This document shows, one piece after another, positions 5,151 to 64,000 of a DNA stretch of 64,000 bases (within the stretch, counting starts at the first letter, position 1; every line of letters begins with the position of its first letter). Source of the stretch: a bacterium (GTDB lineage Bacteria > Cyanobacteriota > Vampirovibrionia > Gastranaerophilales > Gastranaerophilaceae); contig JAFRHR010000060.1 in the NCBI GenBank assembly GCA_017433195.1, forward strand, positions 8,258 through 72,257. The letters run 5' to 3'. Both the position numbers and the translations under genes were made by a program. The notes under the pieces are model-generated. The model was not told the origin of the DNA, ran no database searches, and worked only from the letters and a program-made list of their open reading frames with translations.

Positions 5151-5224
5151 ATATAAAAGTACCTGAATATTCAGATAAATTATAACATTAATTTATAAAA
5201 ATTAGCCCCTCTATATACTTGATA

Positions 5225-5926
5225 TTAAGATTTTTTTCCAACATGAATATGTGGTTTTATATTTATCATTTTTTGAATACTTTCATCCATTTCCGGAAAA
5301 ACGTCTTTTACTTCAGGGTTCAACGCATTTATCATTGAATAAAATCCCTGATCATAACCCGATATATAAAATCCTAATTTTTTGTACATATGAATAAGGC
5401 TTTTATTTGTACAATCAACATCTAACGTCAGACAATCGAAATCTTTTGATTTTTCTTTTATAAAAGAAAAAATCGTTTTTAACGTATCATAAGATGTTTT
5501 TGTTTTATGAAACTTTTCAGGGACGCACATTTCTGCTATATATAACTGCCTGTAAAATTTTTTATCAGGCTTGTTTTCATACAAATGAAACGCCCCGGTA
5601 ATTTCGTTGTTTTCATTTTTTATAAGATATTGCCCCCTTTTTACTTTTTTCAGTTTGGCATCCAAAAGCAAAACCTGTCTTATCGGTTTATCTAAAATTG
5701 TCATTTTAAATTCTTTCTCAATAGTTCTGTTAAAGGCTCTTAAATCTTCCTTAGTCTCGCATTTTTGAATTTTTAAACCATACTCATTAAAACCACCTGA
5801 AGATTTTACAAAAACATCAGATTTCGGCTCATTTATCTTTGCAGCAAACGGAATACTTCGAAAACTTATTACGTTTCGCGCATTTTGAATATTATAAACT
5901 TCTGCGGGGCAAATACCTGAAATCAT
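5225..5926 (-). CDS. GNAT-like acetyltransferase with an N-terminal extension (tentative)
   Basis: C-terminal half (...LYIAEMCV...LTLDVDCTNKSLIHMYKKLGFYISG) resembles the GNAT fold. The Q/RxxGxG motif is not clear. Confidence 0.35.
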   Translation of the reverse strand: MISGICPAEVYNIQNARNVISFRSIPFAAKINEPKSDVFVKSSGGFNEYGLKIQKCETKEDLRAFNRTIEKEFKMTILDKPIRQVLLLDAKLKKVKRGQYLIKNENNEITGAFHLYENKPDKKFYRQLYIAEMCVPEKFHKTKTSYDTLKTIFSFIKEKSKDFDCLTLDVDCTNKSLIHMYKKLGFYISGYDQGFYSMINALNPEVKDVFPEMDESIQKMINIKPHIHVGKKS

Positions 5927-5938
5927 TTTTTTAGAATT

Positions 5939-6235
5939 TTATTTTTTGATAAATTTAGCTGCCATTTCAAGCCCGTAGTTAAGAGCAAATGTTAAAGCAG
6001 TACCCATTGCGGCTGAAGTTGCAGTTGATTTTAATCTTGCTTTATTAAAAGTTGCCTTTACCTGATCCGGAGTCATATACTCATCACCATTACCGGTCAT
6101 GATTTTTCCGCCGTTTTCGGCAGCTACTCTGTTAACTTCTGTCATTTGTTTTTTAATCTGACGTGTTGCTGAAATATAAGACAAACCGCCTGTTAATGCT
6201 CCACATGCTAATGATACTGTTGCTAAACTTGCCAT
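5939..6235 (-). CDS. small Gly/Ala-rich membrane protein
   Basis: 98 aa with hydrophobic N- and C-terminal segments. Co-directional with neighbouring genes. Confidence 0.35.
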   Translation of the reverse strand: MASLATVSLACGALTGGLSYISATRQIKKQMTEVNRVAAENGGKIMTGNGDEYMTPDQVKATFNKARLKSTATSAAMGTALTFALNYGLEMAAKFIKK

Positions 6236-6327
6236 ACACTGTTCTCCTTATATTTCTGCACACTAATACAAAACGCATAAATATATTTTTTTGCTATTTT
6301 TTGCCCAAAAATAAAGTTTTATTACGA

Positions 6328-8283: not shown

Positions 8284-8398
8284 ATTTACCTCAATCTAAT
8301 TTATTAAATAAATTCCCTAAATCTTATACTATAATAATATCTTAACCCCTTTAGTGTCAATGTTTTTTAAAGTATCTTGAAGACTGTTTCAAATAAAA

Positions 8399-9235
8399 TT
8401 AACGATTTGAAATTCTTCTTCTTATAACGGCATTCGCCCCCTGACACGAAATAAACAGCATATTTCCGTCAATATGCAAGCCGTACGGCTTATCTAAGCC
8501 TACGAGAAAATCAGTTAAAGCCCCGTTTCTTGTTATCTTCAAAACAGTTCCCGTGTTATAGTTTGAAACATATATGTTTCCTGCTTTATCTGCAACCAAG
8601 CTGACAGGTCCGCTTATTTTTTTGCTTTTAGCAAAAAGGATTCTTTTTCCTTCAGGCGTAATTTTTATAATACTGCTGTCTGAATAGCAGGCAATATAAA
8701 CATTTCCGTCTAAATCTGTTGTTATACCAGTCGGACTCTCTATATTTTCATAGTTTCCGCTGTTTTTATTAACCTTAGATTCAGGGTTATTTTCTGACGG
8801 AACTACTATATTTATATTCAGCTTTTCGGCCAACTCCATTGCTCTTGTGTAGTATTCGCTTGACGGAGGAATTAAAGACAAATATTCTTTTGCCTTATCG
8901 TACTCCCCGAGTTTTGAACTTATATTTGCCGCTTTGTAAATTGACTCATAGTCTTGCGGTTTTCTGACAATTATCTGCTTAAAAATTACCAATGCCTCGT
9001 CATACTGTCTCAAAAACTCATATATTGTACCCAAATTGTAATAAGCGTCAATATATTCAGGACAGAGTTTTATGGCATATTTGAAAGAGTCTATTGCCTT
9101 AACGTACATACCGAGTTTATAGAAATCCACACCCTCGTTGTATGCAAGTTTCGCATCAACAGGAACTTCCAGTGCCTTTACAGGCATTGCCAAAAATAAT
9201 AACAGTAAGAAAACTATAAATTTACTTTTCTTCAT
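8399..9235 (-). CDS. secreted TPR + NHL-repeat protein
   Basis: Signal peptide. TPR-like AYNEGVDFYKLGMYVKAIDSFKYAIKL.P.YIDAYYNLG. C-terminal NHL-like repeats (DLDGNVYIA, DKAGNIYVSN). Confidence 0.7.
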   Translation of the reverse strand: MKKSKFIVFLLLLFLAMPVKALEVPVDAKLAYNEGVDFYKLGMYVKAIDSFKYAIKLCPEYIDAYYNLGTIYEFLRQYDEALVIFKQIIVRKPQDYESIYKAANISSKLGEYDKAKEYLSLIPPSSEYYTRAMELAEKLNINIVVPSENNPESKVNKNSGNYENIESPTGITTDLDGNVYIACYSDSSIIKITPEGKRILFAKSKKISGPVSLVADKAGNIYVSNYNTGTVLKITRNGALTDFLVGLDKPYGLHIDGNMLFISCQGANAVIRRRISNR

Positions 9236-17869: not shown

Positions 17870-17996
17870 AAATATTATCCTTAACAATTAAAAATAAAGG
17901 CTTTTTAACATTAAAAAATATTACATTATTTGTATGGTTGATTTTAAAAAAAATATTATTAAAATAACCATAGACGACAAATATAAGGAGATTATA

Positions 17997-18554
17997 ATGG
18001 CAAAATATTTAAACGGAAGTTCGCTGTTTACCGCGGTAAATGCAGGGCTGACAAGTTCCTACAGTGTTCTTTCAAATCAATATACAGACGGCGTAACTCT
18101 TGAAAATATCAATAAATCGTTTACAAATCAGTCAATACTTGCAAACGGTAACACTGCCGCATTTTCGTCATATTTATCAACGAATTTCAATTCGTTTGAT
18201 AAAAATAAAGACGGAAAAATTTCCGCAGATGAAATTCAGAACTTTATGACAAACATTTCTCAGCAGGGAATGACTCGTGAACAAATGACAATGTTAGGTT
18301 CCGCATCTGGAATGTCGGGATCATTGCTTGAAACCGTACTTAATCATTTTGATGAAATTGATGCAAACCATGACGGAAAAGTTACTAATCAGGAAATCCA
18401 AAGTTACGGTGTAACCTCTGCTTTGGAAAATCAAAAAATTGAAGACAGAAACAGGATGATAAACCATATGTCCATGTTTTACGGTGATAGTGCCGAGAAG
18501 TATGAAGGGAGTCTGATGAACTATAAATATCTCTCAGACGATGATAACAAATAA
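17997..18554 (+). CDS. EF-hand calcium-binding protein
   Basis: Two canonical 12-residue EF loops, DKNKDGKISADE and DANHDGKVTNQE. ATG at 17997 follows AGGAG. Confidence 0.6.
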   Translation: MAKYLNGSSLFTAVNAGLTSSYSVLSNQYTDGVTLENINKSFTNQSILANGNTAAFSSYLSTNFNSFDKNKDGKISADEIQNFMTNISQQGMTREQMTMLGSASGMSGSLLETVLNHFDEIDANHDGKVTNQEIQSYGVTSALENQKIEDRNRMINHMSMFYGDSAEKYEGSLMNYKYLSDDDNK

Positions 18555-22857: not shown

Positions 22858-23352
22858 TTAAAACCCTTTTATCACATTTAAAGTATTATTTTTAATAGAC
22901 TGAACTTCATATCCTGCATTATTTACAGAATTAATCATTCTAAAAATTTTGTTTGGTGTTACTGCATTTTGCTTTTTAATATCTACTGACTGTTTTGTTT
23001 TATATATATTACAAACATAGTTATATGCCGCTTGAGCATCTGAATCAGGAACGACATACGATAATTCTTGTTTTACATTTTCAGACTTAATCACTTTGTC
23101 ATTGTTATCGTATACTATTATTTTTTGAACCCCTGTTGTGTTATTGGAACAATCAGATTTCATCAACATTTTTTTATAACCATTTACAGTATTAGTTTTT
23201 ATCCAGTATAAATACTGAGAATCTTGATTTGTTATAGAAGACGTGTCTATATATAATGACCTGTCTTTACTTTGAATTTCCTGCCAAACCGCATCTGAAA
23301 ATGCCGGTAACATAATAATCGAAAATAATACAACTAATAAAAATTTTTTCAT
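22858..23352 (-). CDS. secreted hypothetical protein
   Basis: Signal peptide MKKFLLVVLFSIIMLPAFS. The W.EI.....LYIDTSSI...YLYWIK...DC pattern is faintly like surface-adhesin-E-type small domains. Confidence 0.45.
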   Translation of the reverse strand: MKKFLLVVLFSIIMLPAFSDAVWQEIQSKDRSLYIDTSSITNQDSQYLYWIKTNTVNGYKKMLMKSDCSNNTTGVQKIIVYDNNDKVIKSENVKQELSYVVPDSDAQAAYNYVCNIYKTKQSVDIKKQNAVTPNKIFRMINSVNNAGYEVQSIKNNTLNVIKGF

Positions 23353-23367
23353 AACTATACTCCTTTT

Positions 23368-24438
23368 TTAATTCATAAAATCGTCAATTTCTTGATTATG
23401 CTGTTGTGTTTGAGTTGGTTTTACTTGTTGTACAACAACACAATTTTTAGGCATAACAAGTTGTTTTTTAGGTTGAGTTACAGCTTGTACAGACTTTGAA
23501 GTTGATTCTTTAGCTTGATTTTCTTTTACAAAGCGTTTGTAATCTTCTTCGCTCATATCAACAAAATCGCTATTTTCTTCGGCAATGGGCTCTTGTATTG
23601 TAATTGTATTATTGCTTAATGGAGTCTTTATTTCTTGTTGCGTTGATACGAATAATATTAGCATTAATAAAACAACTATAATTATAGAAATTGCTATACA
23701 GTTTCCTACAATTGCCCACTTTTTTTGTGTTTTATTAAATTCTTCAACTGTTGCCCATTCCTTATTCTTCCAAGCCCATTCATTTCCTTTTGCTCCACAT
23801 ACAAACATCCATATAAAGCCAAAATACGGAATTAATGCCCACAATGTTTTAAAACTTTTGTTTCCTATTCCCCAAATCCATGAAAGCCAAAAGGCACCCC
23901 AGTTCCATTGTTTTATATTATCTGGGATATCATTATTCATGCTACTCTCATTTATTGTAGAATTAGAATTTTCTTGCATCCTACTATTCTTTAATAATGT
24001 TTGCGCAATAGATAGGACATTACCAATACTACGATTTTCATTCTCTTCATTTTTACTCAAATTAGGCAATGTTAGCGCCCATACTAAACTACCTACCCAA
24101 GCAACAACAGTCCACCCTAATAATAGATTAATCGCAAATATTGCAGCGGTATATTGCGTTCTTTTTCTATCAGCAATTAAGGATGGCAACAAATAAAGAT
24201 GCAATGATAAATATATGTATAGTATTACTAACATTGCTCCATCGTTATAACCAATAGTGAACATACATATAATAACTATTATGCAAATAATCGCTTCAAT
24301 AAAACCTCCAATATGTAAACTACTTTTTGGCTTATCTTTATCTTGTATAACGAGCCATTCTCCGCAATATTTGCATTTTTTTACATTTATAGGAATTGTA
24401 CTTCCACAGTATGGGCATGATTTTGTTTCTTCTGACAT
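23368..24438 (-). CDS. zinc-ribbon / superinfection-immunity(Imm)-like / DUF2628-like multi-pass membrane protein
   Basis: CPYCGS...CKYCGEW zinc ribbon. LYLLPSLIADRKR...AINLLLGWTVVAWVGSLVWAL matches the T4 Imm-type motif. WNWGAFWLSWIWGI...GAKGNEWAW is a second membrane module. Confidence 0.55.
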   Translation of the reverse strand: MSEETKSCPYCGSTIPINVKKCKYCGEWLVIQDKDKPKSSLHIGGFIEAIICIIVIICMFTIGYNDGAMLVILYIYLSLHLYLLPSLIADRKRTQYTAAIFAINLLLGWTVVAWVGSLVWALTLPNLSKNEENENRSIGNVLSIAQTLLKNSRMQENSNSTINESSMNNDIPDNIKQWNWGAFWLSWIWGIGNKSFKTLWALIPYFGFIWMFVCGAKGNEWAWKNKEWATVEEFNKTQKKWAIVGNCIAISIIIVVLLMLILFVSTQQEIKTPLSNNTITIQEPIAEENSDFVDMSEEDYKRFVKENQAKESTSKSVQAVTQPKKQLVMPKNCVVVQQVKPTQTQQHNQEIDDFMN

Positions 24439-51545: not shown

Positions 51546-52799
51546 TTATTTTATTATTGTTACTGCATTTGAAAGCGGGATACCGCCCTGAACTGCGGGC
51601 TTGTTAACAACGACTCCGTCAACATACATAACGGTTGAACCGCCACCATCCAAGTTCATTGCGTTAATACAACCTAACTCTTTCATAAGCTGTCCCAATT
51701 CATTCAATGTTAAACCTATTGAACTACCTTCACGACCGTCTGCCGTTATAAGTATCAGATGATTTTCTTCTGTATAACCAATTGCTGTTCTCGGGTTTCT
51801 TCCGCCAATTGCCGTTAATTTTTCTTCTGTCATATCAACAAAAACTTCGCCGTTTTTGACTAAATAAGGTCCTCCGCTTATTATGTGGTTTACACCGTCC
51901 CATTCAGGCATAACTTTTAAATTTACATCGATTTTTTGTCCTTGTTTTACCCCTTCAACTTTTGATTTTGGGGCTACCACAACATAACCGTTTTTAGGAA
52001 TTTCAAATCTCTGCGTGCCTATTTCTCTAACTCTTTTATCCTCAATCAGCAATTGTACTCCGCCGGAAGGAGAAGGGGGCGAATATTGCCCCCAATCGGA
52101 AGTGTAAATCAGGACATAACTACTCAGCATACGGGGCTGATTGATATTATCGATTTTGATTTCGTTATGCCCATACCTCAAAGTACCGTTGAACTGAACT
52201 CTTGCCATATCATATTTGTCATTAAAAAGACCTATAGCGACTCTGTCGTATATAGGTCCTGTATAAAGCTTTTTATTTATCATTAATGTCCCTAAAGGAA
52301 CTCCTGTTTGCGGTTTAAAATATGTACCGTTTACTGCTGCAAGTGTTTTATGTTTGTTTGAAATGTTTTTTATCTTAGAGCGATGAGCTAAAGTCTCTGA
52401 TGCTAATGTTGGCTTAACTTCTAATTGCGGATTAAGGCTTTTGTCTAATTCAATTATATTTAACCTTACGGGACGCCCTTTGTAATTTCTTGTTAGCTTA
52501 ATATGATATATCCCTATGTCTATCGGCTTTATAACTACATTGTACCCAGCCTTTTTATATTTGGTATTTATCTCCTCTTCGAAAATTTTAAGCTTATCTT
52601 TAACAAATAAATTATGCTGAACTTTATCCTTTTCCTTATCAATGGAGTTTATTATCGGCGGAACAACAATTCCCTGCGCTAACAATTCATTCGCCGCAAA
52701 CCCTCTGTTTTGAAAAAATACTATCCCCGTCACTGCAACCGTGCTTAAAAAAATCGCTATAACCGTTTTGTTTTTTTTGCATGGCAAATGAGTATCCAT
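51546..52799 (-). CDS. phosphodiester glycosidase family protein (NAGPA/DUF2233-like)
   Basis: N-terminal TM helix, AAVNGTYF, and C-terminal AMNLDGGGSTVMYV. Confidence 0.7.
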   Translation of the reverse strand: MDTHLPCKKNKTVIAIFLSTVAVTGIVFFQNRGFAANELLAQGIVVPPIINSIDKEKDKVQHNLFVKDKLKIFEEEINTKYKKAGYNVVIKPIDIGIYHIKLTRNYKGRPVRLNIIELDKSLNPQLEVKPTLASETLAHRSKIKNISNKHKTLAAVNGTYFKPQTGVPLGTLMINKKLYTGPIYDRVAIGLFNDKYDMARVQFNGTLRYGHNEIKIDNINQPRMLSSYVLIYTSDWGQYSPPSPSGGVQLLIEDKRVREIGTQRFEIPKNGYVVVAPKSKVEGVKQGQKIDVNLKVMPEWDGVNHIISGGPYLVKNGEVFVDMTEEKLTAIGGRNPRTAIGYTEENHLILITADGREGSSIGLTLNELGQLMKELGCINAMNLDGGGSTVMYVDGVVVNKPAVQGGIPLSNAVTIIK

Positions 52800-53173: not shown

Positions 53174-53377
53174 ATGACAGAAGAAGAATTAAATACATTA
53201 ATGTCAGTCGTAAGTGATCCTATTTGCAACGTGTATCATATTGACAGCAGAAAAGACGTTGAAGAAATTCAGCGTATGATAAGAATATTTAATATTTCAG
53301 CAGCACAAAAGAATAAGCACAGATTGTTATCAATAAAGAATTTAGCGACATTCAGACTTATGTTAAGCAATAACTAA
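53174..53377 (+). CDS. small hypothetical protein (67 aa)
   Basis: ATG follows GAGG. Terminator immediately downstream. Confidence 0.35.
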   Translation: MTEEELNTLMSVVSDPICNVYHIDSRKDVEEIQRMIRIFNISAAQKNKHRLLSIKNLATFRLMLSNN

Positions 53378-53402: not shown

Positions 53403-53434
53403 AAAAGGCTTGCCCTTTGGGCAAGCCTTTTAGT
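53403..53434. terminator. bidirectional rho-independent terminator
   Basis: AAAGGCTTGCCC-TTT-GGGCAAGCCTTT. Lies between convergent genes. Confidence 0.6.
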
Positions 53435-53447
53435 TTAATTTAAACTT

Positions 53448-54842
53448 TTATTTAAGACAAATTGTTCTTAGTTTTAATATCCAAATTCTTCTTTTAAGGT
53501 TTCTTATATCACTCTTTTGCTGTTTTATTTGAGTTTCAAGCTCGGATACTTTATTTGTCAGCGCAACGCTTTTTTCTGACGGATTTTTAAGGCTTACAAT
53601 TATATCAGATATTTTTTTATTAAGTTCTTTAATTGCATTTACCATTGCGTAGAAAATATCTTCCTGACGAATTGTATAATAGCCCTCATTATCTTTTGAA
53701 ACAGCATTCGGGAAGATTTTAATCAATTCCTGAGCTACAACCCCAACTCTTTTATTTTTGGGGTCGTTCTTAAAAGTATAATTATAAACTTTTAATTGAT
53801 TTATTTTATCCATGCCTGAGGTATATTCGCCTCCGACATTTTTTAATCTTGAATCTGAAGATTGAACAGGATTTGAACAATAAAGATCATTCACAATTAT
53901 CTCATTTGCACTTAATGTATGCGGAGAGTATGTGGTACCCATAAAAGCAACATTCATGTTTGGTCCGCCTAATATCACAGAATTTGGATAAGATATAGCA
54001 ATTTTGGGTTCAAATGAATGACCAATACCACCAATCGGATCAATCTCTCCGGCAGTTATGCCTGACGCCGTCGTCCCGTGACTAATAAGAATAGTATTCT
54101 GCACAGAAGTAGTTGATTCTTTTCCGATAACGTACGAATCATTTGAAGCTGCAGTCGCATTATCACCCATTGCCAGAGAGTTTATCCCCGAAGCCACCGC
54201 ATAAGGGCCTACAGCAATAGCCCCTTCTGCTGCCGCATTTGTATAATACCCAATAGCTATTGAATTCGCACTGTTTGCTATTGCTTTGTAACCTATCGCA
54301 ATAGCATTATTTCCGGAAGCAACAGCTCCGTTACTCCCAATAGCAATACTATTAACTCCGCTTGCAGATACATTACTACCAATTGCAACAGAATTCGAAT
54401 TATAACCGGTAACATTTCCTAAAACGACTGCATTTGATATTTCACTATTATTTGAACTCGAAAATTTTCCCAAAAATAATCCTTTATCTGAGACAGTAAT
54501 ACTGCCTTTTTTCTGTGCATTTTGATAAAATGAAATATGGTTAGCAACACCATCAGAATTAATTGCTAATCTCGGAAGCGGAGGAGGAGTTTCATATTCT
54601 TCAACCACTTCAACAGGAATGGTTCCGGAACCTATAATTGCAGTTACATTTCGGCCTTCTCTGTTAAATACAGCATTTGTTGTATTACCAACCCATTCCC
54701 ACGGATTATTTCCTTTGCCTCCCCGAGTTCTGATTGTTCTTTTTGTTATAATCGGGGTTGAGGCAGCAAGAATAACAGCTATGACCAAAAGTGCGACCAT
54801 AACTTCCGCTAACGTAAACCCTTTTTTCGTAAATTTCTTCAT
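53448..54842 (-). CDS. prepilin-signal / YadA-head-like repeat / S74 chaperone-domain fibre protein, paralogue 3
   Basis: MKKFTKKG|FTLAEVMVALLVIAVI. About 7 N[SA]IAIG-type 14-residue repeats. SDSRLKN...YNYTFKNDP..RVGVVAQEL..IFP.AV. C-terminal coiled coil. Confidence 0.8.
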   Translation of the reverse strand: MKKFTKKGFTLAEVMVALLVIAVILAASTPIITKRTIRTRGGKGNNPWEWVGNTTNAVFNREGRNVTAIIGSGTIPVEVVEEYETPPPLPRLAINSDGVANHISFYQNAQKKGSITVSDKGLFLGKFSSSNNSEISNAVVLGNVTGYNSNSVAIGSNVSASGVNSIAIGSNGAVASGNNAIAIGYKAIANSANSIAIGYYTNAAAEGAIAVGPYAVASGINSLAMGDNATAASNDSYVIGKESTTSVQNTILISHGTTASGITAGEIDPIGGIGHSFEPKIAISYPNSVILGGPNMNVAFMGTTYSPHTLSANEIIVNDLYCSNPVQSSDSRLKNVGGEYTSGMDKINQLKVYNYTFKNDPKNKRVGVVAQELIKIFPNAVSKDNEGYYTIRQEDIFYAMVNAIKELNKKISDIIVSLKNPSEKSVALTNKVSELETQIKQQKSDIRNLKRRIWILKLRTICLK

Positions 54843-56149
54843 TAACTGTTATTCCTCAACTTAACTTCAATTGAATTTATTTCTTTTTTTAGTTTCTCTA
54901 TATCGTTTGCATTCTTTTCTGCCTGTTTTGAAAGTTTTTTGATTTTTAAATCAACCGAAACGACTACTTTATTTAAATCTGTTACTTGCTTGATAATATC
55001 TTTAATTTTTATATCAAACTCCTTGAGTGCATTAACCATTGTATAGAAAATATCTTCCTGACGTATTAAATAATACCCATTCTCGTCTTTTGAAACGGCA
55101 TCAGGGAATATTTTCATTAATTGCTGAGCAATAACACCTACTCTTTGCTTTGAAGGATCATTTTTAAATGTATAATTATAAATTTTTAATTTGTTTAATT
55201 TATCAAACCCTAAAATATACTCATTATTAATATTTTTTAATCTTAAATCTGAAGATTGAGGAGTATTTGAAGCAGTCAAAGTGCTTGCGTTAATACTATT
55301 TATATACATGGTTGCCGGAGAATACGTATTACCATTCAAAATAACCTTCATAGAAGGACTACCCAAAACAACGTGTCCGGAATAACTGTTACTCTGACCG
55401 GGCAAATAAGTGTAGGTACTTTCAGCCAACAAAGTAGTTCCATGTCCAATAACTATTGAATTTGATACTGCAACATTTGAGTCTTCTCCTATAATCATCG
55501 TTCCGATTCCGCTTACCACAGAATTACGCCCCAAAATTGCAGAATAATTTCCGGAAACAGTTGTGTCAGGACCTATTGCAATTGCATTATTGGCTCGAGC
55601 ATGTGCATCTTTTCCTATTCCAATAGAATTGCCATACACATCTGTTGATTCTCCTATTGAAACAGCATCATTACCCCCGCCGCTGGCATAACCTATAGTC
55701 ACCCCATTATTATGTGTATACGAGCCATTTCCTATTACAACAGAATTAGAACCTATATTGATTCCACGCCCGATAGCAACTGAATTAGAATCGTCCTCAT
55801 TTTGGAAGTAAATATTACTTCCGAAGAAAACTCCGTCATTATTTACTTTAAGACTACCTGCTTTTACATCATTATTATAAAAACCTAAGTGATCTATATT
55901 ATTAGAGTTTGCATGAATAACAACTCTTACAACATTATTTTGTAAATAACCGCCGCCACCTATAAGAAGTACCGAATTGTTTGTTGAATCAAAATATGCT
56001 GCATTGTTATTGCCCCATTTCCATGCTCTGTTAAGCGCCGCTCTTTGCCTTGTCATAGTTTGGGTAATAACAGGTACAGAAACTGCAGTAATAATAGCTA
56101 TTACCATTAGTGAAATTAAAATTTCCGTGAGCGTGAAACCTTTTTTCAT
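54842..56149 (-). CDS. prepilin-signal / YadA-head-like repeat / S74 chaperone-domain fibre protein, paralogue 2
   Basis: MKKG|FTLTEILISLMVIAII. NSVAIG/NSVVIG/DAVSIG/NAIAIG repeats. SDLRLKN...YNYTFKNDPSKQRVGVIAQQLMKIFPDAV. Coiled coil. Stop shares 1 nt with the next start. Confidence 0.8.
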   Translation of the reverse strand: MKKGFTLTEILISLMVIAIITAVSVPVITQTMTRQRAALNRAWKWGNNNAAYFDSTNNSVLLIGGGGYLQNNVVRVVIHANSNNIDHLGFYNNDVKAGSLKVNNDGVFFGSNIYFQNEDDSNSVAIGRGINIGSNSVVIGNGSYTHNNGVTIGYASGGGNDAVSIGESTDVYGNSIGIGKDAHARANNAIAIGPDTTVSGNYSAILGRNSVVSGIGTMIIGEDSNVAVSNSIVIGHGTTLLAESTYTYLPGQSNSYSGHVVLGSPSMKVILNGNTYSPATMYINSINASTLTASNTPQSSDLRLKNINNEYILGFDKLNKLKIYNYTFKNDPSKQRVGVIAQQLMKIFPDAVSKDENGYYLIRQEDIFYTMVNALKEFDIKIKDIIKQVTDLNKVVVSVDLKIKKLSKQAEKNANDIEKLKKEINSIEVKLRNNS

Positions 56150-57630
56150 TCAGTCACCTCACTTTTCTTATTTTTTAAAGAATCAACTTTTAATTCAAGA
56201 TTTTTAACTCTCTGTTTCAGCAGTTTTATTTCCTGAGCGTTATACTCTGTCTGCTTAGATAGATTTTCGACTCTTAATTCCATATCTGCCATATCTTTGT
56301 TGATATTTGAAATACTTGTCATTATATTTTTAATTTTTTTATCAAACTCCTTAAGTGCGTTGACCATGGAATAAAAAATATCTTCCTGACGAATCATATA
56401 ATACCCGTCTTCATCTTTTGATACGGCATCAGGAAAAATTTTCATTAATTGTTGAGCAATAACACCTACTCTTTGTTTTGAGGGATCAGCTTTAAACGTA
56501 TAGTTATAAATTTTTAGTTTATTTAATTTGTCAATCCCGGAAGTGTATTCACCAATAATATTTTTTAATCTTAAATCTGACGGAGCCGTATAATTACTAC
56601 TTGTAATACTATTTGCATAAATTGCGTTTGCATAAATTGTTTTGGCAGTAACTGTATTACCATTCAAAACAACAGAGCTGTTACCTCCGATTATCACAGT
56701 ATTATTTGCATCAATACTGTGATTTGAACCTGAATACTTACAAGTATATGTATTACTTGTGGTTGAGGTCATATTTGTATTATGAGAAATTAAAATAACA
56801 TTATTTACATAATTACTACCTTTTGCCATATTAAAAGTTGAATTATTTCCTATAACAAAAATCTGATTTCCTACTGCTGTTGCCCCATATCCAAGAGCCA
56901 AAGCATTTTTTACCTGAGGAGGAGTATATTTTGAAGCATTTGCTGCGGTGCCGATAGCAATAGACTCCATCATAGATTTCGCACCGGAGCCGATAGCAAT
57001 CCCCATACTAGTATAAGTTTGCTGCTTATCGGAAACATGACAATCCAATTCATTAGTCTCTGAATTAAACGTACATTGGGGAGCTGTAGTTGCACTATTT
57101 CCTATTGCTATTGAGTCATATATTAAAGATGCAGCATTATTACCAATTGCAACATCACGAGACATAGTTAAGGTATTTTGTCCGATATTAACAGAATTAC
57201 GACCATAGACTCTGACACTTCCTATACCAACAGCCGCTGCATTACTAACATTGGCACCAAACCCCCCGATAGAAGTCAAATAAGGGGAGTCACCTAAAAA
57301 ATATCCTTTATTATTTACTGTTAAAGCACCTTTTTTTAATCCATTTTGATAATAAGCAATGTCATCAATATAATTATCAACAGTTCTTATAGCCATTCTC
57401 GGGCGCGGATTTGCATTAAGCCCGCCTAAGCCAACGAGCAATGACCTGTCATCACCACCACTGTTATACTTAGCATTTGAGGTATTTCCAATCCATTCCC
57501 AAGGTTGCCCTGTTTGTTGGCTTAAGTCTACTCTTGTTTTTTGGGTAATAATAGAAGCGGACGCAGCCATAACAACTACTACGACCAGAAGTGCGATTAT
57601 AACTTCAGCAAGAGTAAATCCTCGTTTCAT
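56146..57630 (-). CDS. prepilin-signal / YadA-head-like repeat / S74 chaperone-domain fibre protein, paralogue 1
   Basis: MKRG|FTLAEVIIALLVVVVV. NSVNIG/DVAIG/DSIAIG/MGIAIG/ESIAIG repeats. SDLRLKN...YNYTFKADPSKQRVGVIAQQLMKIFPDAV. Coiled coil. 4-nt overlap with the next gene. Confidence 0.8.
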   Translation of the reverse strand: MKRGFTLAEVIIALLVVVVVMAASASIITQKTRVDLSQQTGQPWEWIGNTSNAKYNSGGDDRSLLVGLGGLNANPRPRMAIRTVDNYIDDIAYYQNGLKKGALTVNNKGYFLGDSPYLTSIGGFGANVSNAAAVGIGSVRVYGRNSVNIGQNTLTMSRDVAIGNNAASLIYDSIAIGNSATTAPQCTFNSETNELDCHVSDKQQTYTSMGIAIGSGAKSMMESIAIGTAANASKYTPPQVKNALALGYGATAVGNQIFVIGNNSTFNMAKGSNYVNNVILISHNTNMTSTTSNTYTCKYSGSNHSIDANNTVIIGGNSSVVLNGNTVTAKTIYANAIYANSITSSNYTAPSDLRLKNIIGEYTSGIDKLNKLKIYNYTFKADPSKQRVGVIAQQLMKIFPDAVSKDEDGYYMIRQEDIFYSMVNALKEFDKKIKNIMTSISNINKDMADMELRVENLSKQTEYNAQEIKLLKQRVKNLELKVDSLKNKKSEVTE

Positions 57631-57664: not shown

Positions 57665-57693
57665 ATTTTAACTCATATTACACTATTTTACAA
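57665..57693 (-). promoter_or_regulatory. candidate sigma-70 promoter for the fibre operon
   Basis: Minus strand reads TTGTAA, 17-nt spacer, TAAAAT, about 35 nt upstream of the first ATG. A TTACAAcaaTTGTAA palindrome lies at 57711-57725. Confidence 0.25.
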
Positions 57694-57916: not shown

Positions 57917-58234
57917 ACTCTGCCGAGCGGGATTTGCGGACGGATGAAACAAAGTGTAATCCGGATAGCGAGGTTTGAAGTTGCGACAGTGATAACGAAG
58001 CAACGGCAAAACCGAGCGTGGAGCAAATCCAAGACAGCAAAACAATTAAGTATTGTTTTGCGAGAGGTAGCACGGAGTGCGCTACAACCCGAAAATTGAA
58101 AATTTAATAATATGGGCGATTGGCGCAGTTGACTCTGCCGAGCAAATGATTAAGTATCATTTGCGAGAGGTAGCACGGAGTGCGCTACCACCCGAAAACT
58201 GAAAATTTAATAATGTGGGCGATTGGCGCAGTTG
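57917..58234 (+). repeat. tandem duplication of the tRNA-Val leader plus the first 18 nt of the tRNA (units 57917-58131 and 58132-58234)
   Basis: Both units read ACTCTGCCGAGC-[hairpin]-GCGAGAGGTAGCACGGAGTGCGCTAC.ACCCGAAAA.TGAAAATTTAATAAT.TGGGCGATTGGCGCAGTTG. Unit 1 ends in a dead tRNA fragment (58114-58131). Confidence 0.75.
57929..58038. repeat. small palindromic element C, copy 2 (inserted in duplication unit 1)
   Basis: The 3' ~75 nt are about 85% identical to 15888-15987. Subterminal inverted repeat GGATTTGC...GCAAATCC. Confidence 0.6.
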
Positions 58235-58292
58235 GTAGCGCACTTGAACGACATTCAAGGGGTCACAAGTTCGAGCCTTGTATCGCCCACCA
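58217..58292 (+). tRNA. tRNA-Val (anticodon GAC), CCA encoded
   Basis: Cloverleaf: acceptor GGGCGAT/ATCGCCC, D stem GCGC/GCGC, anticodon stem CTTGA/TCAAG with loop ACGACAT, T arm ACAAG-TTCGAGC-CTTGT, discriminator A. Position 33 is C, not U. Confidence 0.85.
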
Positions 58293-58472: not shown

Positions 58473-58534
58473 AGCCTTGTATCGCCCACCATAAAAAGAG
58501 AAATGACTTTTGTTATTTCTCTTTTTATTTTGAG
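58473..58534 (+). repeat. 62-bp perfect direct repeat of the tRNA-Val 3' end plus terminator (first copy 58274-58335)
   Basis: AGCCTTGTATCGCCCACCATAAAAAGAGAAATGACTTTTGTTATTTCTCTTTTTATTTTGAG occurs twice, 137 bp apart. Confidence 0.85.
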
Positions 58535-58713: not shown

Positions 58714-59292
58714 TTATTTTTTCTCAACGTTATTAAGATTATGTTTCAAAATACTCCAAAAACTCGGGGCTTCGGGGCGTGCGTCGTATTCAAGCCCTAA
58801 AAGTTCTTTCCAACCGCCTAAAGAAACTGTTTTTTGCACAGCGTTAACTCTGGGTTTGAAAAAACTGCGTTGTCTGTCTTTTTCAAACAATTCTTCCAGG
58901 TGTGATTCCTGTTCGCCTTTTTTCCATTTCGGCTGAGGTCTTGACCAAACATCAGGTTCTTCCCATTTTTCTGCTTCTGATTTTACTCCGTCTTTTTTAA
59001 ACCAAAAGAATAAATTCTTTTTACCTGAGCGTTGTTTTGTAACCGGATCTGTCATATATTCCGCAAACAAATCAACAGAATCCTCAACAAATTCATCCCC
59101 GACTTTTTTTCTTGTTAATCTTACGTTATGAAAACTTTCATTATGATAAATTCTGTCAACATAAAAGTCGCTTTTTATCATATTAACTTCGTAGGGGCTT
59201 GTACCTGCAGGATTTTTAAGTAATTTATAACCCTGATTTTTCTTACTTATTGCATAAGCAACTGTTTTCAAAGTATCTAAATTTATTTTCAT
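58714..59292 (-). CDS. hypothetical protein (192 aa, K/E/W-rich)
   Basis: Uninterrupted ORF. No family recognised. Confidence 0.45.
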   Translation of the reverse strand: MKINLDTLKTVAYAISKKNQGYKLLKNPAGTSPYEVNMIKSDFYVDRIYHNESFHNVRLTRKKVGDEFVEDSVDLFAEYMTDPVTKQRSGKKNLFFWFKKDGVKSEAEKWEEPDVWSRPQPKWKKGEQESHLEELFEKDRQRSFFKPRVNAVQKTVSLGGWKELLGLEYDARPEAPSFWSILKHNLNNVEKK

Positions 59293-59407
59293 TAAAATAC
59301 TCCTTAAAATTAAATTGGTATAAAGAGTATATCAAAAATGAAAATATGTTACAAGCAAATTGAAAAAAGAGATTGAGCATGTTAGATTGTGCATGTACGG
59401 AGGTTTT

Positions 59408-59806
59408 ATGAATATTTGTCCGTTAGGAATCACAAAATCAGAAAAACCCGTTTTTAATGCTAAGTTTGTGCGTGATGAAGAAGGTAAGTTAGATGAAGTA
59501 TTGAACAATCCTTCATATAACAGAGAAATTACACAAAAGACCATGCGGCTCGCAAATGAACTCAGAGAGTTGGGCAAAGGGCAGGATTTAGTAGTGTTGA
59601 AACAATGTGAGTATGACGATTCTTTGAATCACAAGAGAGGATTGCTCATTTTGAACACGACAACACAAAAAGTTGCGCCATTTTGCGGAAATTCGGAAAA
59701 ACCTTTTTGGGACGGAGTGTTATCAGCACTTCTGAGAAGAAGAGATTTTTACGAAGTTGAAAAACCGACCGGAGATGATTTGCACAAACTTCTTTTAAAC
59801 GGTTAG
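59408..59806 (+). CDS. hypothetical protein (132 aa)
   Basis: ATG at 59408 follows GGAGG. The ORF-track start at 59360 is a TTG further upstream. Confidence 0.4.
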   Translation: MNICPLGITKSEKPVFNAKFVRDEEGKLDEVLNNPSYNREITQKTMRLANELRELGKGQDLVVLKQCEYDDSLNHKRGLLILNTTTQKVAPFCGNSEKPFWDGVLSALLRRRDFYEVEKPTGDDLHKLLLNG

Positions 59807-59969
59807 ACAACGAAGAAGTTATTAAAATCATAATAACTGTTCTGTATAGTATTTTTGTATTCAATTTTTGATTTTATTAAATCACGGGTTGATGTTAAAT
59901 TTTTAGAACATTTTTTCATAAAAAATAACTTTAATAGCAAAAATAATTTTTATCGTGTTTTATTATGGT

Positions 59970-60581
59970 ATGCAAATTAATAACCTCTCATTTACCTCAA
60001 AAATAAATTTCGTAGATAAAGCTAATTTCGAAAATATCGTAAAAGGCGAATATGTCGGATTCAGCGAAAATCCTGCCGATATAAATTCCGTGCGCAAAGC
60101 AGATGACTACTTTACTTATGCAGTAAGAACATGCGGAGCAGGCGGAGTCCATAATTCAAAAACAGGACAAAGTGCAGGATATCATTCCTATGACTGCAAA
60201 CAGATGTACCAAAATTTAGAATACTTCGTTGACAGATTTTTCAAAAATGTAGAAAATCCTGATCAGGCATTACTTTTAGGCGGAAAGGAGTTATCTGACT
60301 CTCCGTATTCTATGAGACAATTTTTAAAACTAAAAGAACTTTTGGAACAGAGGGTTGAAAACGTTTCAGTGATTGAGGAACACGTATTTCCATGGTCCGA
60401 ATCAGATATATATTATTCAGGCGAAGACGACACCTATACAATATACAGTATGTACAGGCCTTATACTGAGTTTAGAGAGCGTGCCGTTTTAACTCCTGAA
60501 GATTTAAAAGTAGCTTTCAAAAAAATAAAAATAGCACCTTCAGATACGCTTCAAATAAACGGCTTGGATGTTACTATTTAG
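59970..60581 (+). CDS. hypothetical protein (~203 aa)
   Basis: ORF with its first ATG at 59970 (GTG at 59955 is also possible). No family recognised. Confidence 0.4.
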   Translation: MQINNLSFTSKINFVDKANFENIVKGEYVGFSENPADINSVRKADDYFTYAVRTCGAGGVHNSKTGQSAGYHSYDCKQMYQNLEYFVDRFFKNVENPDQALLLGGKELSDSPYSMRQFLKLKELLEQRVENVSVIEEHVFPWSESDIYYSGEDDTYTIYSMYRPYTEFRERAVLTPEDLKVAFKKIKIAPSDTLQINGLDVTI

Positions 60582-61192
60582 AATTGTGACTCACTTTGTT
60601 CGTAAGCGGGTTGAGGTTCTGCTATATTTACCCCTTTTACTTTTAACTTAACCGAATCGCCTTCGTGTTTAACACAATTTACGCCATGGGTAAGTTTTCC
60701 TGCAGTTTCACCGACAATAAACAGAGTCGGCCCGATAAGTACAATTCCTACAATCGTTACGGCTTCAACAACTATGCAGCAAGCCCCGACTGCACCTGCA
60801 ACAACTGCGACAGGAAGTGTAATAACTCCTTTTGTTACGTTTTTAACGGCAGAACCTTTTATAACATGGCTATCTGTTCCGCCTTTTATTTCATATATTT
60901 CTCCTGACGGAAGAATCATTTTTTCTAACACGATATGTGCTTTTGCGCGTCTGTAACCCCAACGTCCTTTTTTAAAACTTTTAACCTTTCCCTGAAAAAT
61001 CGTACCTTCAGGAATACCTTCGTAACCTTTGATTGTTCTGAACTGAACAATCTGGTCTTTTGAAGCCTTATTTACATTTAGTTCCGTGATAAATTCCGCA
61101 TTAACTTTTTCTGTAGAACCTTTTGCAAAAACAGGCATTGATAAGAAATTAATCATACAGATTAATAAGAATAATGAAATAATTTTTTTCAT
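60578..61192 (-). CDS. secreted/membrane-anchored protein, distant paralogue of 49061..49735
   Basis: Signal peptide. IPEGTIFQGKV......R.AKAHIVLEKMILPSGE. C-terminal Gly/Ala/Val-rich TM segments. Lies 21 nt downstream of hlyD. Confidence 0.5.
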   Translation of the reverse strand: MKKIISLFLLICMINFLSMPVFAKGSTEKVNAEFITELNVNKASKDQIVQFRTIKGYEGIPEGTIFQGKVKSFKKGRWGYRRAKAHIVLEKMILPSGEIYEIKGGTDSHVIKGSAVKNVTKGVITLPVAVVAGAVGACCIVVEAVTIVGIVLIGPTLFIVGETAGKLTHGVNCVKHEGDSVKLKVKGVNIAEPQPAYEQSESQF

Positions 61193-61213: not shown

Positions 61214-62245
61214 TTACCTTACTTTGATACTTTCGTCCATATATTTGATTAACGGATAGATAAAGAACTCTATAATTCTTCTTTTACCGATTTTTATTTC
61301 GTTGGTTGTTGACATACCGTATTTGATAGACTGTTCTTTTCCTTCAACCAAAAGAGTTTTATTCAGCGGTTCTATATAGACTTCGTAAATATCCCCCATA
61401 TGTTCGTCATAAACACTGTTTGGAGATACTATTTTTACAACTCCGTCAAGAATACCGTATTTCTGGAAATTGTATGTATCAACTTTTACTGAAACAGGCA
61501 TATCAGGTTCAACAAATCCGACATCCTGATTTAAAACTTTTGCCTTAATCATCATTGAAGCATCTTTCGGAACAACCGTCATAATTTTTTCAGCAGGCTG
61601 AACAACACCGCCTTCAGTATGAACAAGAATTTTATTAACATAACCTTCAATTGGACTAACCAATATTTGTTTCTGTTTTTCTATCTGAAGTCTTTTGTTT
61701 CTTATTTCTGATAATGACGCATTAAGTGAAGCGATACTGTGTGAAAGTTCTGTTACTTCTTTCACAGCATCATCATATCTTGATCTCGGAATAATATCTT
61801 TAACGTCTTCAAGACGATTTTTTGTTGCAAGCGCAAGCGTATATTTACTTTTATCAGATGCAAGGCTTTCTGCAATACGTATTTCTTCGTCTCTTAAGTT
61901 ATTTAATTCGAGCATAGGCTCGTGTTCTGCCGGAGAAATAATTGCAACAACCTGTCCTTCATTTACATAATCACCCTCTTTTACCAAAAGTTCTCTCACA
62001 ACACCTTTATCAAGTGATTGAACAACTTTTTCCTCTCCTGACGGAATGATTATACCTCTTGCAGTGACAACAATATCAACTTTACCGAAGTACATCCATG
62101 AAGCTGCAAATACTATAAATAAAATAATAATCCAAAAAACCATATTCCCCAAAGGATTTAACGGAGCATCTTCAATTTCAGCCAGTATCGGCTTAAATTC
62201 GTGGCTGTCATCCTGTTTTGGTATCAACATATTAATAAGTTTCAT
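61214..62245 (-). CDS. HlyD-family type I secretion membrane fusion protein
   Basis: N-terminal TM helix, G.I.P.G....VQS...G.V.ELLVKEGD.V..GQV, a coiled-coil middle and a C-terminal beta-barrel. Confidence 0.85.
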   Translation of the reverse strand: MKLINMLIPKQDDSHEFKPILAEIEDAPLNPLGNMVFWIIILFIVFAASWMYFGKVDIVVTARGIIIPSGEEKVVQSLDKGVVRELLVKEGDYVNEGQVVAIISPAEHEPMLELNNLRDEEIRIAESLASDKSKYTLALATKNRLEDVKDIIPRSRYDDAVKEVTELSHSIASLNASLSEIRNKRLQIEKQKQILVSPIEGYVNKILVHTEGGVVQPAEKIMTVVPKDASMMIKAKVLNQDVGFVEPDMPVSVKVDTYNFQKYGILDGVVKIVSPNSVYDEHMGDIYEVYIEPLNKTLLVEGKEQSIKYGMSTTNEIKIGKRRIIEFFIYPLIKYMDESIKVR

Positions 62246-62267
62246 TTTTGTACCTCTTTATAATAAA

Positions 62268-64000
62268 TTAATTAAGTTGTGCATCATATAATTTTTTATA
62301 ATAACCGTTTTTGGCAATAAGCTCATTATGAGTACCCGCTTCAACAATTCGTCCTTTTTCAAAACAGAATATCTTGTCGCAATTTTTAATTGTTGAAAGT
62401 CTGTGAGCAATAATAATTGTTGTACGGCCCTGAGAAATCATAGCCATATTATCTCTTATGATACGTTCTGATTCGTAATCCAAAGCAGATGTTGCTTCGT
62501 CAAATATAAGAATTTTCGGGTTTGAAATCAAAGCTCTTGCTATTGCAATTCTCTGTTTTTGTCCGCCTGATAAAGAAGAACCTCTTTCTCCAACCTCTGT
62601 ATCATAACCTTTCGGGAATTGCGAAATAAATTCGTGAGCACCTGCAATTTGCGAAACCTGAATAATACCTTCCATAGGCATATTAGGTCTCGGAAGAGCG
62701 ATATTATCTTTTATTGTGCCTGAAAACAGATAATTTTCCTGTAAAACTATACCAATATTTGTTCTGAGCCATACAGGGTTTATGTTTCTTATATCAATCC
62801 CGTCAATAAATATTGTTCCCTCTGTAGGATAATATAATCTCTGAATAAGTTTTGTAATTGTTGATTTTCCGCTTCCGCTTCTGCCTACAAAACCTATTTT
62901 TTCTCCGGCCTTTATATCAATATCAATATTATTTAATACCATTGGAGCATCTACATTGTATTTGAAAGATAAATTATCAATATGAATATCGCCGTTAACA
63001 TGGCTTAAAGTAATTGCGTTTCCTGATTGTGTTTCAACAGGGCTGTTCAAAATATCTCCGATACGGTCAACTGCCAAAAGTGTCTGCTGGAATTCGTTCC
63101 ATAAACCAACAAGTCTTAACATAGGTGCTGAGAATTGTCCCGAGAACATCTGGAATGCAATTAACTGACCTATTGTAAGTCTGTTATCTATAACAAGCAT
63201 AACACCTACATAAAGAATAGCGATGGTCATTGCTTTTTGTAAAAATCCGCAAATTGAACCCGTAAAGTTTCCCATAATAGCGAGGTTAAAACTCGATTTT
63301 AAATATTGTCCGAGTTTCTCTTCCCATTTTCTGAACATTGAACCTTCAATTGCAAGAGATTTTACTGTTTGAACCCCTGTTACAGATTCGACCAAATAAG
63401 AGTTTGAATGTGCACCCATCTGGAATTTTTCTTCCAAACGCAACCTGAGCTCAGGAGTTATTATAAGATAAATCACCGCAATAATTGCAAGGAAAGTTAA
63501 TGCAATACAAGTTAATTTCGGGCTGTACATATACATAACAACCAAAAATACAACAGAGAAAAATGAGTCTATCAAAACTGATATTGATTTGTTTGTGATA
63601 AATTCTCTTATTCTGTCAAGTTCTCTGACCCTTGCAACGATATTACCAACCTGTCTGTTTTCAAAGTAAACATAATACAATCTGAATAAGTGCTTAAATA
63701 ATTTTGAACCTAATTTTGCATCTATTTTATTTGTTGTGTGAATAAAAATATAGTTTCTTGAAAGGTTTAAAAACAGCTCAAATACAGATACAACGATAAA
63801 CGCCAGAGCCAATACATCGAGTGTTGCCAAAGTCCTGTTTACAAGGACTTTATCAAGAATAACCTGTGTAAATAACGGAGTTACAAGCCCGAACAATTGT
63901 ATAACAAATGATCCGAGAAGTATCTGTGCCATTATTTTTTTGTATTTAAAAATTTCATTTACAAACCATTTGAAACCGAATTTAAAATCAGAGTTTGCGT
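62268..64000 (-). CDS. HlyB-like type I secretion ABC transporter (permease + ATPase), 5' end beyond the window
   Basis: The reading frame stays open upstream of the ORF-track ATG (...FGFKWFVNEIFKYKKIMAQILLGSFVIQLFGLVTPLFTQVILDKVL), matching the HlyB TMD. Walker A GRSGSGKST, signature LSGGQKQR, Walker B ILIFDEATSALD. Confidence 0.9.
   Translation of the reverse strand, partial: ANSDFKFGFKWFVNEIFKYKKIMAQILLGSFVIQLFGLVTPLFTQVILDKVLVNRTLATLDVLALAFIVVSVFELFLNLSRNYIFIHTTNKIDAKLGSKLFKHLFRLYYVYFENRQVGNIVARVRELDRIREFITNKSISVLIDSFFSVVFLVVMYMYSPKLTCIALTFLAIIAVIYLIITPELRLRLEEKFQMGAHSNSYLVESVTGVQTVKSLAIEGSMFRKWEEKLGQYLKSSFNLAIMGNFTGSICGFLQKAMTIAILYVGVMLVIDNRLTIGQLIAFQMFSGQFSAPMLRLVGLWNEFQQTLLAVDRIGDILNSPVETQSGNAITLSHVNGDIHIDNLSFKYNVDAPMVLNNIDIDIKAGEKIGFVGRSGSGKSTITKLIQRLYYPTEGTIFIDGIDIRNINPVWLRTNIGIVLQENYLFSGTIKDNIALPRPNMPMEGIIQVSQIAGAHEFISQFPKGYDTEVGERGSSLSGGQKQRIAIARALISNPKILIFDEATSALDYESERIIRDNMAMISQGRTTIIIAHRLSTIKNCDKIFCFEKGRIVEAGTHNELIAKNGYYKKLYDAQLN

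Follow-up and report, generated by a model that had tools for sequence, protein, structure and literature searches.

Three tandem genes on the minus strand of a Gastranaerophilaceae genome, here called fiber genes 1-3, encode proteins in which a type IV prepilin leader, a YadA-like beta-roll, and a C-terminal Peptidase_S74 chaperone domain (S74/ICA) are joined in a single chain. The genes lie in a stretch of 64,000 nt (contig JAFRHR010000060.1, positions 8,258-72,257), referred to below as the window, and coordinates follow the window numbering except where another locus is named. In our reading, to which we give a probability of about 50%, the products would form a periplasmically folded and self-processed trimer whose three pilin helices prime or cap a type IV filament. 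The genes are chromosomal, diverged paralogues of a lineage-specific family, which is real and uncharacterized; the surprise that it holds is moderate, not exceptional. The idea of a trimeric fiber anchored by pilin helices was first raised from the DNA letters without database searches (hereafter, the sequence-only reading), and it stands in so far as all three of its domain assignments were confirmed; the folds are those predicted by hidden Markov models and structure models, and trimerization is what homology would lead one to expect.

Reading of the open reading frames (ORFs) bore out the coordinates, strand, product lengths, overlaps, and translational coupling initially reported for the three genes (Table 1). 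Genes 1 and 2 meet in ATGA (4-nt overlap) and genes 2 and 3 in TAATG (1 nt), with Shine-Dalgarno-like GAGGTG and GAGGAA preceding the starts at these two coupled junctions, and an AAGGGG Shine-Dalgarno sequence preceding gene 1. Because of the start/stop overlaps, the Shine-Dalgarno-like runs, the promoter-like site upstream, and the hairpin after the last stop, the three genes can be regarded as one compact operon. Their products share 40-42% identity overall, and 64-81% within the S74 block.

The N-termini proved to be exactly as first quoted, each with a short basic leader, Gly-1, Phe+1, Glu+5, and about 20 hydrophobic residues, and all three exceeded the thresholds of Pfam N_methyl (PF07963; 21.5, 22.2, and 28.4 bits for genes 1, 2, and 3; GA cut-off 21.2) and of NCBIfam TIGR02532 (21.8, 25.3, and 27.0 bits; cut-off 16.3). 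Class III motifs occur three times in the whole window, each time at one of the fiber genes. Among 97 unique N-termini of the family, residue -1 is Gly in 71% and Ala in 29%, and Phe1, Ala18, and Pro22 are present in 97, 99, and 99%, respectively; furthermore, Glu5 is invariant across a 19-sequence family alignment. Throughout the family the class III leader is constant, and its seeming exceptions are truncated or mis-started ORFs. Conservation of Pro22 together with Glu5 is typical of filament-forming pilins and pseudopilins, not of generic membrane anchors. In the AlphaFold models of genes 1 and 3, the helix that follows the leader stops about 31 residues after the start of the mature protein and gives way to beta strands that lead into the beta-roll. 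When a family profile built from 54 homologues was searched against PDB sequences, its pilin match (PilA, 4.8e-4) was confined to residues 1-40. The N-proximal domain (residues 36-140), used as a single-sequence phmmer query against 1.84 billion representatives to look for it on fibers of other types, returned six matches, all of them family members.

A YadA-like beta-roll of about 14-residue repeats had been proposed for the center of the proteins, and the proposal holds, with the Pfam YadA_head model above its cut-off (GA 25) in gene 3 only (53.9 bits; genes 2 and 1 fall below, with 22.1 and 11.4 bits), and the family profile, the repeat spacing, and the models supporting the rest. The xx[IV]A[IV]G motif recurs every 13-15 residues, regularly in genes 2 and 3 and in degenerate form in gene 1. 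Against PDB sequences, the family profile matched heads of trimeric autotransporters, with BpaC (5.5e-26) and YadA (5.8e-18), and also AtaA, BoaA, EibD, CbpF, and UspA1. The AlphaFold monomers of gene 3 and gene 1 (mean predicted local distance difference test, pLDDT, 76 and 72, respectively) are built alike: a single helix opens the chain, beta-rich sequence and then a very confident beta-roll (pLDDT up to 99 in gene 3) follow, and an extended helix closes it. Both models led Foldseek to the heads of BoaA, CbpF, BpaC, and YadA. On these models and profiles, the YadA-like repeat appears to occur in all three fiber proteins.

The C-terminal assignment to Peptidase_S74 was likewise upheld, since all three proteins score above the cut-off of the Pfam model (E-values 6e-13, 2e-11, and 2e-12; 49.3, 44.3, and 47.8 bits for genes 1-3; GA 22). 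The family profile also matched the ICA domain of MyRF (3.2e-7), phi29 gp12 (1e-3), and phage tail fibers in the PDB, and the gene 1 model was aligned to MyRF ICA by Foldseek (E 1e-3, TMt 0.60). Ser, Asp, and Lys of the Ser-x4-Lys motif are invariant in alignments of 54 and 55 homologues, and SD.[RK][LIFM]K is present in 127 of 135 family sequences. The reference dyads, S587/K592 of MyRF and S911/K916 of endoNF, have the same Ser-x4-Lys spacing; in MyRF the cut falls N-terminal to the Ser, in the trimer only, and trimerization depends mainly on the C-terminal coiled coil (PMC8326128). With an invariant dyad spaced as in these two proteins, the Ser named by the sequence-only reading remains the probable cleavage residue, and autoproteolytic release of the chaperone would be expected after trimer folding. 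That reading was also right about a heptad-rich coiled coil, but not about its place: it is no module following S74 but the C-terminal part of S74/ICA itself, as in MyRF and endoNF (PMC8326128). The C-terminal helices of the AlphaFold models span residues 394-463 in gene 3 and 415-493 in gene 1.

The family is large, and nearly all of its named members are Melainabacteria. With gene 3 as query at least 583 protein clusters were retrieved, the best matches listed sharing the same Pfam domains, and at least 461 relatives came to light when each GTDB species was scanned through a single genome. The best 80 of these come nearly all from metagenome-assembled genomes (MAGs) of Gastranaerophilales, Melainabacteria, or Vampirovibrio, with the exception of a few obviously mis-binned contigs, and within the same 80 at least 13 assemblies contribute two to four loci each. 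Named members belong to 'Cyanobacteria bacterium' and Gastranaerophilaceae MAGs. Family matches in GTDB representatives are at most 39% identical to the window genes, and the proteins range from 420 to 810 aa, with a center highly variable in length and both ends conserved.

In the mechanism that we propose, the class III signal would insert the chain in the inner membrane with the N-terminus inside and the remainder in the periplasm, and a PilD-type prepilin peptidase would cut after Gly-1 and methylate Phe+1. In the periplasm, S74/ICA would trimerize through its coiled coil and bring three left-handed beta-rolls into register as a fiber of about 10 nm. Once the trimer has formed, the Ser-Lys dyad, whose catalytic residues are invariant, would cut before Ser351, Ser300, or Ser329 (genes 1-3, respectively), and the chaperone would be discarded. 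The mature trimer would keep three alpha1N helices, with Phe1, Glu5, and Pro22, and could be taken up by the machinery of a type IV pilus or pseudopilus to serve as its tip or priming complex, carrying the variable adhesive head at the end of the filament. This uptake is the weakest step, suggested by analogy with the homotrimers of the tip pilins CofB and TcpB. Because the anchor lies N-terminal to the cut, the cleaved fiber should stay tethered, a topology opposite to that of MyRF. Moreover, if each beta-roll turn takes about 14 residues and adds about 0.48 nm, by our own estimate, some 200 residues would give a fiber of about 7-10 nm, too short to reach from the inner membrane to the surface of a diderm; the fiber would therefore need a carrier filament. 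Conservation of Phe1, Glu5, and Pro22, together with occasional operon linkage to other prepilin genes, indirectly supports the idea of a tip adhesin or primer.

Several observations weigh against a role in filaments. A globular alpha-beta pilin domain built on an alpha1 helix of about 50 residues was neither predicted by AlphaFold for genes 1 and 3 nor matched by Foldseek; since no pilin fold comes after the helix, the pilin module seems to be reduced to alpha1N, unlike in CofB and in PilB of S. sanguinis. AlphaFold gave low confidence to the S74 part of its monomers (pLDDT about 45-70), and a trimer with C3 symmetry could be fitted to the helical rise of a pilus only by way of flexible linkers. 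As the sequence-only reading had stated, the window holds no pilB, pilC, pilD, or pilM-Q in a Pfam/PHROG census, and no pilT or peptidase A24 (prepilin peptidase) gene was found in it either. In a survey of 79 Gastranaerophilales loci bearing family genes, no conserved genomic partner of the kind looked for, pilus machinery, was found nearby, the top neighbor clusters being present in at most 10 loci and encoding housekeeping or TPR proteins, and at 73 of the 79 there is no other prepilin gene within 1 kb.

In the main rival, the pilin leader is an export or anchoring signal only, holding the protein in the membrane or admitting it to a T2SS-like or T4P-like exporter, and the fibers are tethered to the inner membrane, released, or deposited on the surface, never becoming filament subunits. 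The missing globular domain and the scatter of family genes among housekeeping genes speak for it, as do the many unrelated N_methyl proteins of Gastranaerophilales, tandem arrays among them, which suggest that the leader is broadly used; Bdellovibrio MAT proteins with S74, moreover, are surface fibers without a pilin part. We nevertheless consider this rival rather unlikely, because Phe1, Glu5, and Pro22 are conserved as in filament-forming pilins and a mere anchor would not need them, and because the short members, with about 300 mature residues, could not span the envelope of a diderm from the inner membrane by the length estimate given above. Family genes are also enriched beside other prepilin genes, with 0.8 other prepilin-type ORFs per 10 kb within 1 kb of a family gene vs. 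0.07-0.09 at 3-10 kb, a difference of about 10-fold. Indeed, in five loci (L008, L015, L046, L052, and L076) a fiber gene heads an operon with a 191-aa N_methyl gene and an N_methyl gene of about 330 aa, and at L008 (9228-13059) a 209-aa GspG/H-like protein with N_methyl and DUF6613 is additionally encoded upstream. These operons are flanked by housekeeping genes, and may each represent a self-contained minor-pilin set. PilT-like ATPase genes lie 8-9 kb from family genes in two loci, the distance being 9 kb for the orthologous triad of L084. One genome of Gastranaerophilus is reported to encode pilA, pilB, pilC, pilD, and pilT (PMC5877343).

The arrangement of the three genes as an array raises a further alternative to three separate homotrimers, namely that the paralogues co-assemble 1:1:1 into an ABC heterotrimer tip complex, in the manner of GspI-J-K or PilV-W-X. 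The tight translational coupling speaks for it, and so does synteny: the order gene 1-gene 2-gene 3 recurs in two other lineages, where the orthologues of gene 3 show 59 and 51% identity, orthology runs largely position by position, and a small convergent ORF and a NAGPA gene come after each triad in this order, with Maf and S1 also present in the longer contig (L084). The coiled-coil tails are position-specific, being 53-74% identical between orthologues and 24-48% between paralogues, except for the converted gene 1/gene 2 pair of L085 (62%). The beta-rich half of the S74 domain evolves in concert within arrays. In the L085 triad (4719-9027), genes 1 and 2 agree almost completely over some 150 nt, a tract that matches gene 3 at about 95% identity; its start coincides with the catalytic Ser codon, and the fiber-coding DNA immediately upstream is much less identical. 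In the window, a 260-nt DNA repeat (D1) begins at each S74 Ser codon, and genes 1 and 2 have in common a PSKQRVGVIAQQLMK stretch that is missing from their orthologues. Recent gene conversion among the S74 blocks of the window was considered and rejected, as their third-position identity is 0.5-0.7; only an older homogenization of genes 1 and 2 is seen there, and clear conversion is found only in L085. Because of the same third-position values, the window blocks appear to be mostly under purifying selection.

Divergent tails combined with homogenized S74 halves would fit equally a defined heterotrimer or three homotrimers kept apart by their tails, since the distinct tails are just as well explained as sorting signals, and gene conversion between tandem paralogues is expected anyway. 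Furthermore, all known S74 fibers and YadA heads are homotrimers, and most related loci bear a single family gene. With mature products of different lengths (about 346, 295, and 320 residues) and an insertion of 30 residues in gene 1, the beta-rolls of a mixed trimer would not line up. For these reasons the heterotrimer seems improbable to us. A broader proposal builds on the array, whether as ABC heterotrimer or as three sorted homotrimers: it would replace the canonical minor-pilin priming complex in Melainabacteria, with the phage-derived S74 chaperone serving as a periplasmic quality control that licenses only correctly trimerized three-helix caps as nucleators, and with a swappable head setting adhesion specificity. 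We regard this as a long shot; if true, type IV filaments would here be started and functionalized in a novel manner.

That the fiber genes are remnants of prophage or tailocin tail-fiber genes, with an incidental N-terminal helix, is very improbable, even though several features point that way. PHROG tail-fiber families match, with phrog_1980 aligning to residues 44-428 of gene 2; predicted viral structures include fibers with a YadA head and S74 in pithoviruses and uncultured Caudovirales; the NCBI protein name for the family is 'tail fiber domain-containing protein'; and a tRNA-Val gene with partial duplications is located about 600 nt upstream. This origin was rejected because the Pfam and PHROG census detected no phage genes, structural ones included, in the window, because only four cultured phages in INPHARED match, in the S74 region alone, and because none of the best 80 of 214 IMG/VR relatives covers the pilin end (residues below 100). 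The leader, in turn, lies above curated pilin-motif thresholds and is conserved family-wide, and the triad locus is syntenic in three lineages. What viral relatives share is the S74 part, in some of them together with repeats. On present evidence, the beta-roll and S74 cassette is a common viral fiber design, and its fusion to a pilin leader is cellular and essentially Melainabacterial. Trimeric autotransporter adhesins (type Vc secretion), suggested by the YadA_head repeats and the profile matches to the BpaC, YadA, AtaA, EibD, and UspA1 heads, can be practically dismissed, as the three proteins have no YadA_anchor beta-barrel in Pfam at E<=1, end in S74, and begin with a class III signal rather than a Sec signal or ESPR.

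Table 1. Features of the fiber operon, in window coordinates (arrows mark predicted cleavage points).
Feature	Position	Strand	Description and evidence
Gene 1	56146..57630	-	494 aa; leader MKRG↓F; alpha1N residues ~7-32; degenerate beta-roll with Cys-containing insertion; S74/ICA from Ser351
Gene 2	54842..56149	-	435 aa; leader MKKG↓F; nine regular 13-14-residue repeats at residues 122-235; S74/ICA from Ser300
Gene 3	53448..54842	-	464 aa; leader MKKFTKKG↓F; alpha1N residues 11-39; beta-roll ~137-260, pLDDT 95-99; S74/ICA from Ser329
Gene 1 class III signal peptide and alpha1N (residues 1-32)	57535..57630	-	N_methyl, TIGR02532, AlphaFold helix 7-32
Gene 2 class III signal peptide and alpha1N (residues 1-31), Pro at mature 22	56057..56149	-	N_methyl, TIGR02532
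Gene 3 class III signal peptide and alpha1N (residues 1-36), Pro at mature 22	54735..54842	-	N_methyl, TIGR02532, AlphaFold
Gene 1 YadA-like beta-roll, residues ~128-320	56671..57249	-	Repeat spacing, AlphaFold, Foldseek (BoaA head rmsd 3.6 A; YadA TMt 0.59)
Gene 2 YadA-like beta-roll repeats, residues ~120-270	55340..55792	-	Pfam scan, repeat spacing
Gene 3 YadA-like beta-roll repeats, residues ~135-300	53943..54440	-	Pfam, repeat spacing, family profile, AlphaFold, Foldseek
Gene 1 S74/ICA chaperone domain, Ser351 to end, C-terminal coiled coil	56149..56580	-	Dyad Ser351/Lys356; predicted scissile bond Pro350↓Ser351
Gene 2 S74/ICA domain	54845..55252	-	Dyad Ser300/Lys305; predicted scissile bond Ser299↓Ser300
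Gene 3 S74/ICA domain	53451..53858	-	Dyad Ser329/Lys334; predicted scissile bond Ser328↓Ser329
Promoter-like site TTGTAA-17-TAAAAT, upstream of gene 1	57665..57693	-	Consensus match only; such sites in the region no commoner than in shuffles
Bidirectional intrinsic-terminator-like hairpin closing the operon	53403..53431	.	13-bp stem, 7 GC pairs; downstream of gene 3 stop

With regard to the wider surroundings, the Pfam census, which covered nearly all substantial ORFs of the window, showed a type I exporter and otherwise the housekeeping genes of a diderm chromosome (LpxB, LpxI, OmpH, F-type ATP synthase, DnaG, RpoD, MinCDE, PurD, Era, NadBC, LytB, S1, and Maf). The window matches an ENA metagenome scaffold, and the named protein closest to its DnaG, at 61% identity, is that of 'Cyanobacteria bacterium RUI128'; the host is a non-photosynthetic diderm Melainabacterium (Vampirovibrionia), probably Gastranaerophilales-like. 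Convergent to the fiber operon, and with the terminator hairpin in common, lies a 67-aa ORF (53174-53377, plus strand; beginning MTEEELNTLMSVVSDPICNVYH) without a match in Pfam or PHROG; in three related contigs its identity is 91-97%, against only 50-59% for the adjacent fiber genes. The NAGPA gene (phosphodiester glycosidase; 51546-52799, minus strand), whose product has an N-terminal membrane segment and also matches uncharacterized PHROG families, adjoins the triad in all three lineages. No convincing phase-variation elements (invertible repeats or homopolymer tracts) were seen around the fiber promoter.

Upstream of the operon, the tRNA-Val(GAC) gene (58217-58292) is flanked by its own partial copies, namely a 75-nt copy of its upstream region and first 18 nt (58057-58131, 96% identical) and 62 nt (58473-58534) that repeat its 3' end and terminator hairpin without a mismatch, which look like scars of tandem duplication or of integration and excision at the tRNA. 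Between this gene and an HlyD/ABC exporter, four ORFs of 192, 148, 208, and 204 aa (58714-61192) have no Pfam or PHROG match; ORFs of comparable size (193, 203, and 136 aa) occupy the same position upstream of the L085 triad, and none such is present in L084. The exporter is part of a type I secretion/bacteriocin-export set (61214-63932, minus strand, and beyond, L001 1-3828), composed of an OEP (TolC-like) protein, an ABC transporter with an N-terminal Peptidase_C39, whose gene is interrupted by the window end, and an HlyD-family adaptor. Elsewhere in the window (22858-24438, minus strand, and 17934-18554, plus strand) are encoded a 356-aa Imm_superinfect protein, an adjacent Adhesin_E-like protein of 164 aa, and a 206-aa EF-hand protein. 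In addition, two Gastranaerophilales genomes carry four tandem N_methyl genes of about 205-250 aa each (L058 5512-8276 and L067 12451-15377). Taken with the other N_methyl genes described above, they suggest that the repertoire of class III-signal proteins in this order is unusually large.

Although almost all prokaryotic groups have type IV filaments, the building and function of their tips are known in few model systems. In this context, the fiber family suggests a different solution, in which the pilin part is cut down to the assembly helix and carries an obligately trimeric fiber; an S74 chaperone, a domain otherwise typical of phage tail spikes, would fold and proof-read this fiber and would itself be discarded afterwards. 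Should the trimer be located at a pilus tip, it would extend the 'trimeric initiator' idea of CofB and TcpB to a distant phylum, and phage fiber cassettes would have been recruited into pili. Melainabacteria are uncultured relatives of Cyanobacteria, common in human and animal guts. The genes of the family are multi-copy and frequently in arrays, and their heads are variable; the family is therefore relevant to attachment to hosts, food particles, or other microbes, and it probably counts among the major surface determinants of gut Melainabacteria.

The sequence-only reading held that a pilin anchor joined to such a fiber is not a characterized class. Full-text literature searches indeed found no paper studying a pilin-YadA-S74 fusion, so the statement stands for experimental work; it does not stand for the architecture, which is already contained in a published dataset, nor for trimeric pilins, which have precedents. 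Among modular pilins, IPR012902-IPR030392 (29 proteins) is the sixth most frequent architecture, and Dataset S1 of the same study lists IPR012902-IPR008640(x1-2)-IPR030392 in 4+3 proteins, exactly the architecture of the fiber proteins; the authors read S74 as 'peptidase activity' and went no further (Raynaud et al., 2021; PMC8179133). S74 as a trimerization chaperone corrects this published reading of the module. As in the modular pilins of that survey and in PilB and PilC of S. sanguinis, IPR012902 is here followed by a module that is not specific to pili, but PilB of S. sanguinis carries a complete globular pilin module on a short loop, whereas only alpha1N is evident in the fiber proteins.

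The S74 domain has relatives of several kinds. K1F endoNF, T5 pb1, phi29 gp12, and MyRF have the same C-terminal intramolecular chaperone, Ser-Lys dyad, and helical coiled coil, and their cleavage is coupled to trimer formation. Viral S74 fibers begin with virion-attachment N-termini, and none of the viral relatives compared above has a pilin end, while MyRF has its membrane anchor C-terminal to the cut, so that cleavage releases the trimer, the reverse of the N-terminal anchor found here. The S74 subgroup of Bdellovibrio MAT fibers resembles the present family as a cellular, multi-paralogue group with a terminal S74, an SDxxxK motif, an N-proximal domain that is beta-rich and conserved, and distal parts that vary (PMC10769870), the trimer being predicted in our case; autocleavage was shown for Bd3182 and is blocked by S782A (Caulton et al., 2024; PMC10769870). 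MAT proteins, in contrast, have an ordinary signal peptide, a 130-aa N-domain of unknown anchor, about 1,000 aa, and intertwined beta-helices (PMC10769870), where the proteins described here have a prepilin signal, YadA-type beta-rolls, and less than that length. YadA, BpaC, BoaA, and CbpF share the left-handed beta-roll head with NSVAIG-type repeats of about 14 residues, but trimeric autotransporters rely on a beta-barrel anchor and a Sec signal, both missing here, and the driver of trimerization would be S74 instead of the anchor and stalk.

The best functional analogues are CofB of the CFA/III pilus of enterotoxigenic Escherichia coli and TcpB of the V. cholerae TCP, in which a pilin N-terminus is combined with homotrimerizing, beta-rich C-terminal domains; trimers of this type at the pilus tip start assembly and mediate adhesion or ligand docking (PMC6048534, PMC5207764). 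The likeness is functional only, as no CofB or TcpB chain was among the matches of the PDB profile search or of Foldseek. CofB has a full type IVb pilin domain, an H-type lectin domain, no self-cleaving chaperone, and a gene located in the pilus operon, whereas the fiber genes are scattered, multi-copy, and restricted to Melainabacteria. By analogy with these tip pilins, an obligate trimer joined to a pilin helix would not be unprecedented in function.

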